From NCBI GenBank assembly GCA_002295925.1, contig DBGO01000010.1:161706-225705 (forward strand): a stretch of DNA of 64,000 nucleotides. The letters are read 5' to 3'. Shown one piece after another: positions 14,367-19,379 of the stretch. Under the pieces are notes generated by a model that saw nothing but the letters and a program-made list of their open reading frames with translations, ran no database searches and had not been told where the DNA came from. Source of the stretch: Flavobacteriales bacterium UBA852. Lineage in GTDB: Bacteria > Bacteroidota > Bacteroidia > Flavobacteriales_E > Vicingaceae. A program made the position numbers and the translations under genes. Numbering within the stretch: position 1 is the stretch's first letter; the number at the start of each line of letters is the position of its first letter.

Positions 14367-16253
14367 TTATCTGACAATCGTAACACTGCCCTTCAATTCA
14401 TACTCTTTTCCATCTATTCCGGTAGCTTTTATTATATAATAATACGTACCGTCAGGAACTTCTTTACCTGAAGACGTTCTTCCGTCCCAGTAACTTTTTT
14501 CATTTTCCAGTTGGAAAATCATTTCGCCCCATCTGTTCCAAATTGTTCCGGTAAGCGATGTTAAATTATCCGACTCAACTCGGAAAACATCATTCACACC
14601 ATCATTATTAGGTGTAAAGATATTTGGCACAACTAATACCGATTCACCAATTACTTCAATTGTAACTGTATCTGTTGCTGTACAGAACCCTTCGGTAACG
14701 GTTAATGTTACCAAATAATTACCTAAAGAATCGTAAGTATGCGAAACCGAGGCACCATTATCAGTTGTTCCGTCTCCCAAATCCCAGTTATAAGTATAAT
14801 TTGGATTTGTAGTCGTAGAAAAATCTACATCAAGCGGAATAATTCCGGATGTTGGCGAAGCATTTATCGATGCTATAGGATTATAAACGGTTACCGTTAC
14901 ACTATCCATTTGATTACTACATCCATTACTCTTTGATTGATAGTAATAAGTAAACACTCCTCCTGATGTAATGGAAGGCGTAAACGAATTTCCGGTAAAA
15001 ATCAAATTATTACCTTGTGCATCACTGTACCAGTATAATGTATCAGTAGTAGATGAGGAATAATTAACAGGCAAACCTGAAAAACATAACGTTGTATCGG
15101 TAAATGATACTTGTTGTGGAACAGGATTCACGGTTACAGTTGTAATAATAATACTGTCACATCCGTTAACTGTTGACAAGGTATCGAAATATGTACCGGC
15201 ATTACTTTGATATCCTCCACCGACTAACACACTATCACCTTGACATATAGCAACATTTGCTTGACTTGTAGCCACAGGATATATTGTTATCTCAAAAGAA
15301 TCTACTTTTTGAGGACATGTGTTTGTAGCTGCAACTGTATTATAAATCATATAAGTACCTGCAGAACTGTTTGTTAAATCAATTTGTCCTGTATTAGGGT
15401 CAAGACTCACATTACTGCTTGATGAACTAAACACACCCGCTGCACTTCCGGGTAAAATGGTCGGCAATATTGTTGTAGTATCGTTTTCACAAAATGGCGA
15501 ATTATAGGTAAACTCAGCATCCGTACAATTGGGAACTATAGTAAGAATCCAAGGTGAAAAAGTGGACTGATTAGGAATAGGACCTACTGTTCCCACTCCG
15601 CTTGTAACACCTAAATTACCTGGGCCTGCTTGAGGATCCCATGAGGTACCATTCCAATGTTGTGCTTTTACCGTATCATTTGGAAAAGCGGTTGTATTTT
15701 CACTTCCCAAATAAGAAAATGTTAAGTCAGCAGTTACAGTATTGGACGAAGTAATATCCCAAAAGCGGTCAATAGCTGCTACCACAGAATCGGCAAATCC
15801 AGTCATTTGTGTTACAGGTCCAACATTTGTTGCTGCAGCATGCGGCATATTTTGTGGATTTGTTCCCCAAGTAGAAATGGTTATGTCATTATTGGTGTTT
15901 ACAGTTTTATTAAAAGTAAAAGGGATATAGTCTGCTGCATTGTTAGATACACCAAAAGGAAAAACATAATTACCCGTATTGGTTCCGGTAACCCATTTCA
16001 CGTAATGGTATTGATTTTCAGTAGCAATATGCCCTGAAACTCTTACTATACCTGCCGTATCCGGTTGATTTACCACCAAATATACAGGTGTTCCTGCAGA
16101 ACCACCATTCATAATAGTATAAGCACCATTTAGAATAAGTGTATTGTTTTGGCCATAACTGTTTAAAAACAGCAGTAAACTAAATACAGGCAATGTTTTA
16201 ATTATTAAATATTTAATATTCATGATAACAAATTTTTTATTGTTATTATTCAT
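14367..16253 (-). CDS. secreted adhesin-like protein with PKD domain and T9SS type-B (gliding-motility-associated) C-terminal sorting domain
   Basis: Signal peptide; PKD motif (PLDVDFSTTT…WDLGDGTT…SHTYDSLGNYLVTLTV); C-terminal VVPNIFTPNNDGVNDVF…WNRWGEMIF…DGTYYY type-B CTD; alternative ATG at 16223. Confidence 0.85.
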   Translation of the reverse strand: MNNNNKKFVIMNIKYLIIKTLPVFSLLLFLNSYGQNNTLILNGAYTIMNGGSAGTPVYLVVNQPDTAGIVRVSGHIATENQYHYVKWVTGTNTGNYVFPFGVSNNAADYIPFTFNKTVNTNNDITISTWGTNPQNMPHAAATNVGPVTQMTGFADSVVAAIDRFWDITSSNTVTADLTFSYLGSENTTAFPNDTVKAQHWNGTSWDPQAGPGNLGVTSGVGTVGPIPNQSTFSPWILTIVPNCTDAEFTYNSPFCENDTTTILPTILPGSAAGVFSSSSSNVSLDPNTGQIDLTNSSAGTYMIYNTVAATNTCPQKVDSFEITIYPVATSQANVAICQGDSVLVGGGYQSNAGTYFDTLSTVNGCDSIIITTVTVNPVPQQVSFTDTTLCFSGLPVNYSSSTTDTLYWYSDAQGNNLIFTGNSFTPSITSGGVFTYYYQSKSNGCSNQMDSVTVTVYNPIASINASPTSGIIPLDVDFSTTTNPNYTYNWDLGDGTTDNGASVSHTYDSLGNYLVTLTVTEGFCTATDTVTIEVIGESVLVVPNIFTPNNDGVNDVFRVESDNLTSLTGTIWNRWGEMIFQLENEKSYWDGRTSSGKEVPDGTYYYIIKATGIDGKEYELKGSVTIVR

Positions 16254-16509
16254 TTTCTTTTTTATCTGTATTAGATAAAAAAGGTAATAACCTTGTTTTT
16301 GAATTCTTATTAATATCAGAAGATTTCTCTGATATTAAAAGTTTTGATTTATTTAAATTCTTATCATTTAAATTATTTTTAGTATCACTTTCTGTTTTTC
16401 CAGAAACAGCTAATTTTGGTTCTTTGGCATCTGTACTTTTTGTTTGCGAATACGAACAAAATGAAACAAAAAGCAAACTAAGGAATGTTATTATTTTAAA
16501 AAACTTCAT
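16246..16509 (-). CDS. small secreted Lys/Ser/Asn-rich protein (87 aa)
   Basis: Signal peptide (…FCSYSQT), low-complexity K/S/N/D-rich body; 12 nt downstream of the collagen-like gene; stop overlaps the next ORF by 8 nt. Confidence 0.5.
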   Translation of the reverse strand: MKFFKIITFLSLLFVSFCSYSQTKSTDAKEPKLAVSGKTESDTKNNLNDKNLNKSKLLISEKSSDINKNSKTRLLPFLSNTDKKENE

Positions 16510-16521
16510 ATTATATTTCTT

Positions 16522-17547
16522 TTATTGCATTACTGTAATAGACATATGATGCCCTGGTTGAGAAGGGTCAATTACAGCATTATAAGTACCATATATTCCA
16601 CCAACTAAACCTTGAACAGTTATTGTATACGTATTACCAACTGTTAATCCTGTCACATATCTCGTCATTGAACAACTCCAAGGTGTAATGGTGCCAGTTA
16701 CATCATCATAACTTTGTATTTTTGTATTTGTACTACCAATGGGCGAACCATTATTTAAAATTCTAAATTGCACAAATGCCATGGAGTTTGTATAGCCATA
16801 CCCTGATGAAGAAAAATTTATAATTGCATCTGAGGTAACGGCAACAAAGGAAACTGAAATTGAAGGTACTGTAGCCCATGATGCACTACTTACTGTTACG
16901 GCACTAGATAAAAAACTTCCTGTTTTCAAAGTAACCCCAGGAGGGCCTTGAGGACCCTGCGGACCCTGTGGGCCTTGTGGACCCTGCGGGCCAGTAGCAC
17001 CTGTTGGTCCTTGTGGGCCTTGCGGACCGGCTGGACCTTGACAATCTAAAGCATCCCAAACACCATCACCATTTATATCTTCAGATGGATCTTGAACTCC
17101 ATCTCCATCTGCATCCCAGCATGCAATTCCGGCTGGACCTTGTGGACCCTGAGGACCTTGCGGACCGGCTGGACCTGTTGGGCCCTGAGGACCTTGTGGG
17201 CCTTGTGGGCCTTGTGGACCCTGAGGACCCTGAGGACCTTGTGGACCTTGTGGACCTAAAGCTTGTACCCATTGTGTACCATCCCAATACCAAAATCCTA
17301 CACTCCCTCCTGTCATGGCAGGATTTATATTGTACACCAACAAACTAACCGCAGGAGAAGGTATTGTTACTACATCTGTTGTAGATTGTAAACTTACTCT
17401 TGGTATTAACACCCCTTTATCTGTATAATTAACATCTAATGCTGCCGAAGGGTCAGGCAAAGCTCCCGTTGTATTAATACCTACATTTTGTGCAGATAAA
17501 ATTGTTATTGCAAATAATAATAGAATAAATAATTGAAATTTTTTCAT
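16522..17547 (-). CDS. secreted collagen-like triple-helix repeat protein, short paralogue (341 aa)
   Basis: Signal peptide; 77-aa N-domain; 14 + 11 GXY triplets (GPQ/GPT/GPA) split by [27 protein letters not shown]; 138-aa C-terminal globular region. Confidence 0.85.
16939..17256 (-). repeat. 9-bp-periodic collagen (Gly-Pro-X) coding repeats, two blocks (16939-17037, 17131-17256) around a unique 93-nt insert
   Basis: Read directly: tandem ttgtggacc/ctgaggacc/ggctggacc units on the plus strand (GPQ/GPA on minus). Confidence 0.9.
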
Positions 17548-17559
17548 GTTTTTTTGTTT

Positions 17560-17913
17560 TTAAGGTTTATTTCGCTCTTCACCACCAACTACTGCTTTAC
17601 TTTTACTTATACTATTATTATCTGTATTTACTTGACGCATTTTATACTCTTGCTTCATTTTTTCAATCTCTTCTTTACTAACAACTCTAGTTCGAGTTGG
17701 TGTACTAACAGTCTTATCTTCATTTATAACACTTGTTTCACTATTATCAAAATACTGGATACTTTCTTTAATTTTTTTAATTTCAGATTTTTTAAGCACT
17801 CGAGTATGCGTAGGTGTTCTTATAATAGAATCTTCATTATTTACAACCTGTTCTTGTCCATATATAACCTGAAAACCAAAAAATATTAACATTATTACTA
17901 ATACGTTTTTCAT
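17560..17913 (-). CDS. small secreted Lys/Glu-rich protein with an internal duplication (117 aa)
   Basis: Signal peptide (…VIYGQEQ); two copies of TPT[HR]TRV..K.EI.K.K; gaps of 14 and 12 nt to the flanking collagen-like genes. Confidence 0.5.
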   Translation of the reverse strand: MKNVLVIMLIFFGFQVIYGQEQVVNNEDSIIRTPTHTRVLKKSEIKKIKESIQYFDNSETSVINEDKTVSTPTRTRVVSKEEIEKMKQEYKMRQVNTDNNSISKSKAVVGGEERNKP

Positions 17914-17927
17914 AACATTACATTTAA

Positions 17928-19379
17928 TTAATCAAATATTGTTAGTACACAATGGTCTGCTACAGTTGATAGAGTAGGATTTATTTCTACCCTCCATGGA
18001 GATGATGCCCAGTTCAATACTGGTTTCCATTGTATAGTTATTGTATGTGAACCAGGAGGTAAATTAACTGGCACACCTGAAAAAGACACCGTTCCAGAGG
18101 TTGTAACATATAATCCTCCACTTGCACCCTGATCAAAATCAGTTAATAATGTTGCTGCTCTTGCTACGACATTACCATCTACTAATATTCTTGCTTGTAT
18201 TATTCCTTGACCAAATTGAGCATTACCGGAATTATCTGCTAAACGAGCAGTAAATGAAGCAAATATATAAAATGTATTATGTACAGTAGTCATAGTTATT
18301 GACATGCCTGGAATAGTTTGAAATGAAGTAGTATTTGTATTTGTTGCTAAAGTAGATAAGCTTATACTTTGAGCATTATTACCATACATTGGAATAGAAG
18401 TTGGCGTCTGCCACACAGGAGCGTTACCAGCACCTTGACTGGTTAAAATTTGTCCGGCTGCACCGGGATTTCCACCTGGTCTCAAATCACCGGTAAATTG
18501 AATATTTCCATTTACGTCTAGCTTTTGACTGGGTGATGTATTACTAATACCAACATTTGTACCATTATCAGTAATTATACTACAAGTAGCGGATGAACCA
18601 TTAGATTTTAAAACCTGGTTTGCTGTTGAACACCCAACTGGACCGGGAGGGCCTTGTGGACCCTGTGGGCCTGTAGCGCCTGTTGGGCCTTGTGGACCTT
18701 GCGGACCGGCTGGACCTGTTGGGCCCTGTGGACCTTGTGGGCCAGCTGGTCCTTGTGGTCCTTGTGGTCCTTGACAATCTAAAGCATCCCAAAAACCATC
18801 ACCATTTATATCTTCAGATGGATCTTGAACTCCATCTCCATCTGCATCCCAGCAAGCAATTCCGGCTGGGCCCTGCGGACCCTGTGGACCTGCTGGACCC
18901 TGTGGACCTGCTGGACCCTGTGGACCTTGTGGGCCTTGAGGACCGGCTGGACCTGTTGGACCTGTTGGACCCTGTGGACCTTGAGGACCGGCTGGACCTG
19001 TTGGGCCCTGTGGACCTTGTGGGCCTTGAGGACCGGCTGGACCTTGTGGACCCTGTGGACCTTGTGGGCCTAAAGCTTGAACCCATTGTGTTCCGTCCCA
19101 ATACCAAAAACCTACTGCACCCCCGGTCATTGCAGCATTGGTATTATATACCAATAAACTTACTGCTGGCGAAGGTATTGTTACTACATCAGTTGTTGAT
19201 TGTAAACTTACCCTGGGAATCAATACCCCCTTATCAGTATAATCCACATCCAAAGCTGCCGAAGGATCAGGCAAAGCACCTGTTGTGTTAATTCCTATAT
19301 TTTGCGCTTTAATGCTATTGATAAATAACATTAGTAAACAAGCAAATATTAACTTCTTCATAATTATTTGATTTTGCAT
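17928..19379 (-). CDS. secreted collagen-like triple-helix repeat protein, long paralogue (483 aa)
   Basis: Signal peptide (possible start at Met7, 19361); same N-domain; 23 + 15 GXY triplets split by [27 protein letters not shown]; 235-aa C-terminal region with [15 protein letters not shown] and [16 protein letters not shown] motifs. Confidence 0.85.
18636..19070 (-). repeat. 9-bp-periodic collagen coding repeats, two blocks (18636-18770, 18864-19070)
   Basis: Same tandem 9-nt units as at 16939-17256; block lengths confirmed from residue and coordinate arithmetic. Confidence 0.9.

Follow-up and report, generated by a model that had tools for sequence, protein, structure and literature searches.

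A Putative Double Calcium-Loop Unit Closed by Two Cysteines in the Collagen-Like Stalks of Bacteria

Introduction

Bacterial collagens form their triple helices without hydroxyproline, and their nucleation, stability and chain register are usually credited to terminal trimerisation domains and to charge pairs. Such hydroxyproline-free triple helices melt near 35–40 °C. Calcium loops of the EF-hand type follow a 1-3-5-9-12 pattern of ligands, in which residues 1 and 12 of the loop ligate the same ion, and in paired EF-hands position 8 of one loop faces position 8 of the other. The type 3 (T3) repeats of thrombospondin (TSP) sequences are characterised by a cysteine after each motif and by the D-N-C-P signature. 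The C-terminal domain of the BamM protein is described by the authors of its structure as having no defined secondary structure and as being structured by seven calcium ions (PMC12611786). The present work concerns a 27-residue unit with two loops of the EF-hand type, bracketed by two cysteines, which interrupts the Gly-X-Y triplets of two collagen-like proteins of Flavobacteriales bacterium UBA852. Both are encoded in a stretch of 64,000 nucleotides (nt) of contig DBGO01000010.1 (positions 161,706 to 225,705), called the window here, and all coordinates are counted from its first nucleotide.

The unit was pointed out in an earlier sequence-only reading of the window, which was aware of no described bacterial collagen with an internal module of this kind. 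This agrees with the literature searched here, which describes no calcium-binding or EF-hand-type unit within bacterial collagens and does not mention the families DUF7151 or PF26696, most subscription-journal papers lying outside the search. NCBIfam holds no model for the unit, and Collagen is the only family that the newer precomputed Pfam annotations give for the proteins that carry it. Judged by its sequence, the unit is a new family, which is built from the generic DxDxDG loop and stands outside the TSP_3, Dockerin and helix-loop-helix EF-hand families.

The Unit in Two Collagen Stalks

The open reading frame (ORF) of gene A (16522..17547, minus strand) encodes 341 amino acids (aa), which comprise a signal peptide, an N-terminal domain, a collagen run, the calcium/cysteine unit, a second collagen run and a TNF/C1q-like head. 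Its paralogue, gene B (17928..19379, minus strand, 483 aa), has the same N-terminal domain, 24 triplets, the unit, 16 further triplets and a different, tail-fibre-like C-terminal region. The Pfam Collagen model (PF01391) reaches 56.7 bits in gene A and 66.8 bits in gene B, with a cutoff of 27.2, which places both proteins in the family. By triplet count, the first run of gene A (17122..17256, minus strand) consists of 15 triplets, the last being G-I-A, and its second run (16930..17037, minus strand) consists of 12 triplets that begin past C27-Q.

Translation of the reverse complement of 17041..17121 in gene A and of 18774..18854 in gene B yields in both cases a 27-residue unit from cysteine to cysteine, while translation of the plus strand gives nonsense interrupted by stops, so the units lie on the minus strand. 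The sequence-only reading had located the two copies correctly without stating the strand; its length of 27 residues, which includes both cysteines, is confirmed by the translation, and the resumption of the triplets after CQ, which it had described, is found in both genes as a C-Q-G-P re-entry. A degenerate DNA pattern that spans the unit has exactly two matches in the window, both at these places, and none in 100 dinucleotide-preserving shuffles.

In gene A, as read from the translation, the alignment and the DNA pattern, the unit consists of C1-W2, loop 1 (D3-E14), loop 2 (D15-D26) and C27; the translation and the DNA pattern give the same for gene B with V changed to F at unit residue 21. 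Both loops are 12 residues long; acidic or amide residues occupy positions 1, 3, 5, 9 and 12, and Gly occupies position 6. The two predicted calcium loops of the DxDxDG type between two cysteines, and the DxDxDGxxDxxD motif in both paralogues, are as the earlier reading had described them.

Conservation and Distribution

For the alignment and as the seed of a profile, 39 instances of the unit were gathered from homologues of gene B. Seven residues (C1, W2, D3, E14, D15, D26 and C27) are invariant in this alignment, and the same seven positions are 99–100% conserved in 411 unique 27-mers. In the latter set, D or N fills loop positions 3 and 5, Gly predominates at position 6 (about 0.78), and position 9 has D in loop 1 (0.89) and D, N or T in loop 2; the canonical 1-3-5-9-12 ligand pattern with Gly 6 is present in both loops. 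The variable unit positions (4, 9–10, 12–13, 16, 18 and 21) are presumably exposed. There is also a 28-residue variant, in which an additional residue lies inside loop 1 between positions 9 and 12 and the boundaries are unchanged.

A search of 1.84 billion protein cluster representatives with the 39-instance profile matched 2,375 clusters at E ≤ 1e-3, of which 1,121 reach E ≤ 1e-10 and 164 reach E ≤ 1e-30; a single protein can contain as many as 17 units. Among the 147 best new proteins, 143 hold Cys-to-Cys units, and of the 611 units counted 388 have 27 and 207 have 28 residues. A 44-aa query with the unit found no match in a separate, word-indexed collection of clustered proteins. The proteins of gene A and gene B are absent from that collection, though they are present in the contig index, which explains the empty result and the missing self-match, and the query had too few indexed words for the result to be evidence of rarity.

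The degenerate DNA pattern was further scanned over one genome per species, which gave at least 120 matching loci. Among the matches listed, full units are found in 117 of 120 loci, at least two triplets abut at least one side in 91% of the units, and the record titles give the following tally: about 53 Bacteroidota (Saprospiraceae, Flavobacteriales, Chitinophagales), 21 Gammaproteobacteria (many of them Woeseiaceae), 13 Planctomycetota, 8 Myxococcota or "Deltaproteobacteria", 7 Deinococcota (Trueperaceae, Thermaceae), 3 Chloroflexota and 3 Thermoplasmata-type archaeal metagenome-assembled genomes (MAGs). At least seven phyla thus carry the unit. Among the cultured carriers are several Flagellimonas species, Allomuricauda sp. 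NBRC 101325, Taibaiella lutea and Oceanithermus desulfurans. Within the Deinococcota, the carriers are MAGs of Thermaceae, MAGs of Truepera and further Trueperaceae, and Oceanithermus desulfurans; Thermaceae, Trueperaceae and Oceanithermus are lineages that include thermophiles.

Nine IMG/VR stretches from seven putatively viral contigs match the DNA pattern of the unit. The ORFs of the contig richest in units have no PHROG matches, and a tblastn search against 50,697 phage records gave no match. Among the hosts found, one unit-bearing collagen-like protein (P0094) ends in two regions resembling Hcp1/TssD, the tube protein of type VI secretion, which is an unusual fusion.

Fit to the Triplets and Fold of the Unit

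The unit is fitted to the triplets of its host stalks in a regular way. Gly stands at position −3 before C1 in 93% of the units and at +2 after C27 in 86%, and the X residue of the last triplet, two residues before C1, is L, I, V or F in 83%, which gives the boundary pattern G-[LIV]-x-C...C-x-G. The spacing between consecutive units is 1 mod 3 in 83% of cases, i.e., one residue plus a whole number of triplets, x + (GXY)n, and the commonest spacers have 10, 4, 13, 7 and 16 residues. If residues 2–26 are looped out, the chain would read G-x-y-C-C-x-G, and the triplet phase would be preserved. In unit-rich proteins, the tandem copies are near-identical and regularly spaced, and the Gly-X-Y runs between them have a median of 4 triplets (1–6, some only 1–2) and are often acidic and Pro-poor (e.g., P0121, P0125, P0134). 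Such short, Pro-poor runs suggest that in these proteins it is the units that carry the structure.

The cysteines of the unit vary together. The outer pair, C1 and C27, is complete in 876 units and missing as a whole in 3, and no unit has only one of the two. About 30% of the units have an extra cysteine at position 8 of both loops: 184 units have it in both loops, 3 in a single loop and 426 in neither (Fisher p about 2e-155; 41 proteins). This covariation indicates that the two loops pack against each other, as paired EF-hand loops do.

The unit is also found outside collagen, namely in a loop of a 703-aa protein of Taibaiella lutea with multiple transmembrane segments and tetratricopeptide repeats (L074, 2866–4977) and in predicted lipoproteins of about 200 aa (L007 and L008, both IMG/VR contigs). 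Its presence in loops of unrelated proteins implies that it folds autonomously, with adjacent N and C termini. An AlphaFold2 (AF2) model of the unit, computed from the 39-row alignment, has a predicted local distance difference test (pLDDT) score of 80.6 overall and of about 90 in the core, with helical turns of 3–4 residues at loop positions 10–12. The only Foldseek match of this model is the calcium loop of a dockerin, with a root-mean-square deviation of 0.8 Å over 14 columns and a non-significant E of 9.3.

A Trimeric Fibre

Both fibre proteins begin with a signal peptide that ends in ...SA/QN or ...KA/QN and continue with a domain of about 75 residues. In gene A, as read from the sequence, the signal peptide (about aa 1–19, with an ...LSA/QN cut) and the N-terminal domain (about aa 20–97) occupy 17257..17547 on the minus strand. 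The domain is PF26696 PTL_trimer according to the database record of P0001, a relative that is 96% identical to gene B, and has no relative in the PDB by sequence search. At the other end of gene A (16525..16929, minus strand), the AF2 model contains a confident all-beta C-terminal domain (residues 205–341, pLDDT about 80), and its best Foldseek matches are trimeric lectins of the TNF-like kind, namely the N-terminal lectin of BC2L-C (2wq4, E=2.7e-6, template modelling score normalised to the target 0.64) and Photorhabdus PLTL, which assign the head to the jelly-roll of the TNF/C1q-like fold. EDA-A1, C1q domains, collagen X NC1 and the tip of a Bdellovibrio fibre follow (further entries 9ib7, 1rj7, 4f3j, 1gr3). 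On this model, gene A is predicted to be a bacterial fibre of the "collagen stalk plus TNF/C1q-like head" kind. Among the hosts of the unit, the marks of trimeric fibres are the TNF-like head, PTL_trimer and Peptidase_S74.

The placement of the unit in the collagen stalk of a trimer, as assumed in the sequence-only reading, is therefore backed by the TNF/C1q-like head of gene A and by the PTL_trimer N-terminal domain. Since the stalk of gene A belongs to a trimeric fibre, three units are expected at one level of the stalk.

Possible Transfer of the Unit Between the Stalks

The units of gene A and gene B and their flanks are identical in 104 of 108 nt (17023–17139 compared with 18756–18872), while the N-terminal domains of the two genes are 82.7% identical and differ by 32 synonymous codons (binomial P=1.5e-5). 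The DNA of the unit region is thus far closer than that of the N-terminal domain, which suggests, as far as can be told from the sequences, a recent gene conversion or a recent cassette transfer between the two stalks.

Proposed Mechanism and Alternative Explanations

The explanation favoured here, which is held with moderate confidence, is that the unit is an autonomous, mobile cassette with a double calcium loop closed by cysteines, which staples and registers the trimeric collagen stalk. In its favour are the conserved ligand positions, the paired cysteines, the in-phase fit to the triplets and the trimeric hosts. Each of the 12-residue loops would hold one calcium ion. Because residues 1 and 12 of a loop ligate the same ion, the entry (C1-W2-D3), the midpoint (E14-D15) and the exit (D26-C27) of the unit should converge. 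C1 and C27 could then form a bond, either within the chain or between neighbouring chains at the helix axis, and the collagen chain would leave the unit almost at the point where it entered. In the trimer, three calcium-loaded knots would create a cross-linked collar with six calcium sites and six cysteines on or near the axis. This collar would staple and register the hydroxyproline-free triple helix, and it would form only after export, where calcium and oxidising conditions exist.

A more far-reaching version of this explanation is offered as a tentative possibility only. In it, the unit is a staple of the trimer gated by both calcium and redox state, a prokaryotic counterpart of the cystine knot of animal collagens with a double calcium loop placed between the knot cysteines. 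Even very short or Pro-poor Gly-X-Y runs would then fold in register only after export, the stability of the stalk would be raised, which would account for the occurrence of the unit in thermophilic Deinococcota, and the unit could be transplanted into recombinant collagens. In either version, the unit would be a new internal element of stabilisation or registration and a ready part for engineered recombinant collagens.

Several points weigh against the stapling and registering role. Calcium binding, the disulfide pattern (intra- or interchain) and the effect on stability are what we infer. The GPQ-rich flanks of the window proteins (12–24 triplets) may be stable without any staple. The counts of unique units lack phylogenetic independence. 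Run length and Pro content correlate weakly in favour of the role, but in biased protein sets: the longest Gly-X-Y run has a median of 11 triplets in unit-bearing proteins against 43, the Pro content is 0.15 against 0.23, and unit density falls as Pro content rises (rho=−0.33). The occurrence in Deinococcota lineages that include thermophiles is a further weak correlation in the same direction. The unit is dispensable, as it is missing from close alleles and orthologues. P0001 (389 aa) lacks the unit and is shorter by 94 residues in total, and three of the four gene A orthologues retrieved (P0062, P0037, P0065) are also without it.

The deletion in P0001 lies between 16-residue (48-nt) repeats (window 18627–19070 compared with L132 6001–7170, L133 and L134). 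The protein is present in three independent marine assemblies, and at two of the loci the downstream genes are unchanged and include gene A (341 aa), which points to a real presence/absence polymorphism. Assembly collapse was considered as the source of P0001 and rejected, given that three assemblies contain the same 389-aa protein, that the contig names in two of these indicate k=127 and k=119, and that the repeat (48 nt) is shorter than either k. The unit is likewise missing from P0002 and P0003, which are 68–70% identical to gene B. Among the orthologues of gene A, the corresponding site of P0026 is occupied by a divergent unit of 28 residues. In further gene B orthologues (P0004, P0006, P0008, P0014), the stalk contains one or two copies of DUF7151 (PF23657) and no unit. 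The stalks of bacterial collagens seem to draw on a repertoire of interchangeable calcium/cysteine cassettes. DUF7151 was seen at the same position of the stalk in P0004, P0006, P0007, P0008 and P0014, with the re-entry C-N-G. The natural alleles with and without the unit constitute a built-in experimental control.

According to the sequence-only reading, poor conservation or absence of the insert in orthologues would argue for a neutral linker. The absence is a fact (P0001–P0003, P0062, P0037, P0065), and the conclusion does not follow from it, because the unit is an optional yet strongly conserved cassette; with seven near-invariant residues in more than 1,000 clusters, the unit is conserved and under selection. 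The related explanation, by which the unit is a hinge, a kink or an effectively neutral spacer that serves flexibility or length variation of the stalk, similarly to the kinks of C1q and mannose-binding lectin (MBL) or the interruptions of type IV collagen, is considered quite improbable. It would fit the break of Gly-X-Y in the middle of the stalk in proteins with C1q/TNF-like heads, the presence or absence of the unit among close orthologues and alleles, and the tolerance of the same stalks for other cassettes such as DUF7151. However, a neutral or flexible spacer would hardly keep seven residues about 100% identical and the ligands of both loops across this number of clusters and several phyla, nor is the covariation of paired cysteines expected of it, and a disulfide-closed knot with a double calcium site should be rigid.

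Two other explanations start from the family models that come closest to the unit. For the window unit, all Pfam scores are below threshold: Dockerin_1 14.0, FG-GAP 13.5, EF-hand_5 13.2 and TSP_3 12.3 bits (cutoffs 22–26). Over the 39 instances, Dockerin_1 is the most-matched model (24 instances, best E 3.6e-4), ahead of FG-GAP (17), EF-hand_5 (12), TSP_3 (8) and TSP3_bac (1). The unit could be a ligand-binding or docking site on the stalk, i.e., a mini-dockerin for a cohesin-like partner, a calcium-dependent binder of acidic polysaccharides or glycans, or a bridge between the fibres of a surface mesh, which is regarded as unlikely. The adhesin- or fibre-like hosts with lectin-like heads and the presumably exposed variable positions are in line with such a role, and the whole-protein Dockerin_1 score exceeds the cutoff in P0128 (34.8), P0134 (25.8) and P0013 (24.3), as well as in P0170. 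This happens by summation only, as no single stretch passes, and the window unit itself has 14.0 against 22.9 bits and does not contain two loop-helix segments of about 22 residues. The two helices that make up the cohesin-binding face of a dockerin are absent from the unit, the near-identical and evenly spaced tandem copies look like structural repeats, the strict phasing of its ends with the triplets speaks for a structural constraint, and no partner gene was identified adjoining the window genes. Least probable of all is a true homologue of the thrombospondin type 3 repeat, acquired by a bacterial collagen and acting as a TSP-like calcium "wire". The type 3 label given in the sequence-only reading stands at the level of the motif, where loop 2 with its cysteine resembles the T3 motif DxDxDGxxDxxD(N)C, and the nearest PDB sequence match is the calcium-structured, secondary-structure-poor domain of BamM. 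It does not stand at the level of the profile: PF02412, which that reading had named as a check, gives 11.8–12.3 bits against the cutoff of 25 and matches the 8 instances at E ≤ 1 with a best E of 3e-3, while the models of Dockerin, FG-GAP and EF-hand do equally well or better. The cysteine pattern of T3 is not found in the unit either: loop 1 is not followed by a cysteine, N-C-P does not occur, and of such cysteines there are just the two that bracket the unit, C1 and C27. The pairing of the loops at position 8 is a feature of EF-hand pairs and not of the T3 wire.

Genes of the Locus

All genes of the locus are on the minus strand, in the order gene B, a 117-aa protein (17560..17913), gene A, an 87-aa protein (16246..16509) and a 628-aa PKD/Ig_7 protein (14367..16253). 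The last of these contains, by Pfam and NCBIfam, a CHU_C sorting domain of the type IX secretion system (T9SS type B), which marks a neighbourhood of surface proteins; unlike it, gene A and gene B have no recognisable T9SS C-terminal domain. The two small ORFs encode secreted-looking proteins, that of 87 aa being rich in Lys and Asn, and neither of them has a family match, while their synteny is kept in other assemblies. The 117-aa protein has an internal repeat (RTPTHTRVLKKSEIKKIKE / STPTRTRVVSKEEIEKMKQ).

Both fibre proteins are found in the same neighbourhood on one 263-kb marine metagenome contig of Tara Oceans. In the index of the assembly collection, the exact protein of gene A appears in 111 blocks (marine metagenome contigs) and that of gene B in 84. 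The surroundings of the locus are housekeeping genes; the product of the neighbouring pheT carries an NCBI annotation as a protein of a Flavobacteriales MAG. A prophage tail-fibre origin of the window genes was considered and rejected, as the PHROG "tail fiber" matches of their proteins cover the Gly-X-Y stalk, together with some neighbouring sequence in a few families, and the context is chromosomal. Several long ORFs run antisense or out of frame to the collagen repeats (17004–17348 and 18683–19291 on the plus strand, 18814–19107 on the minus strand, 18825–19073 on the plus strand); they are by-products of the GGNCCN periodicity and not genes.

Comparison with Known Families

No model in the Pfam and NCBIfam releases searched covers the domain family that the unit defines, and this gap leads to stray "dockerin" calls; the multi-unit proteins P0128, P0134, P0170 and P0013 may be annotated automatically as dockerin-containing. 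With type I dockerins (PF00404), the best Pfam model over the instances, the unit shares the duplicated calcium loops and Asp at position 12, the latter in loop 2. The dockerin, however, has about 60–70 aa and two cohesin-binding helices, whereas the unit has 27 aa and no cohesin context. The likeness to an EF-hand pair lies in the 12-residue loops with D, N or E at positions 1, 3, 5, 9 and 12, in Gly 6 and in the position-8 contact indicated by the cysteine covariation. Here the difference is that the unit has no entering and exiting helices, that its loops abut (E14-D15) and that it is closed by cysteines within its 27 aa; the Pfam EF-hand models give 11–13 bits against cutoffs of about 25, and the helix-loop-helix architecture is absent.

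TSP_3 (PF02412) resembles the unit in the tandem DxDxDG loops, in the scarcity of secondary structure and in the expectation that calcium, together with disulfides in the TSP case, organises the chain. The thrombospondin repeats extend into a long wire with another cysteine pattern, while the unit would be a closed two-loop knot inside Gly-X-Y. The closest sequence match of the unit in the PDB, which is not significant (E=0.011), is the C-terminal domain of BamM from Flavobacterium johnsoniae (9n2d_D); it too has tandem DxDxDG loops, and it is cited as a precedent for a calcium-structured domain.

Another cassette of collagen stalks is DUF7151, which is also bracketed by cysteines, has a loop of the EF-hand type and re-enters the triplets as C-x-G. 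It is longer (about 46 aa), has just one loop and includes an additional beta-like segment. Homology between the two is possible, with an hhalign probability of only 46%, and the DUF7151 profile has no match in the window proteins at E ≤ 1. Among animal collagens, the cystine knots and interruptions (the "CC" of type III, the junctions of fibril-associated collagens with interrupted triple helices (FACIT), the kinks of C1q and MBL) likewise have cysteines at the edge of the triple helix in a trimer, an interruption in the middle of the stalk or a C1q/TNF-like head. With residues 2–26 looped out, the unit would likewise present a "CC" in phase with the triplets. The animal elements are not homologous to the unit, whose two cysteines are separated by a 25-residue double calcium loop. 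The DxDxDG calcium loop combined with a disulfide is an element of a known kind, with a sister cassette catalogued as a Pfam DUF. The double-loop CWD...DC unit, its in-phase place within triple helices and its wide distribution appear to be uncatalogued.

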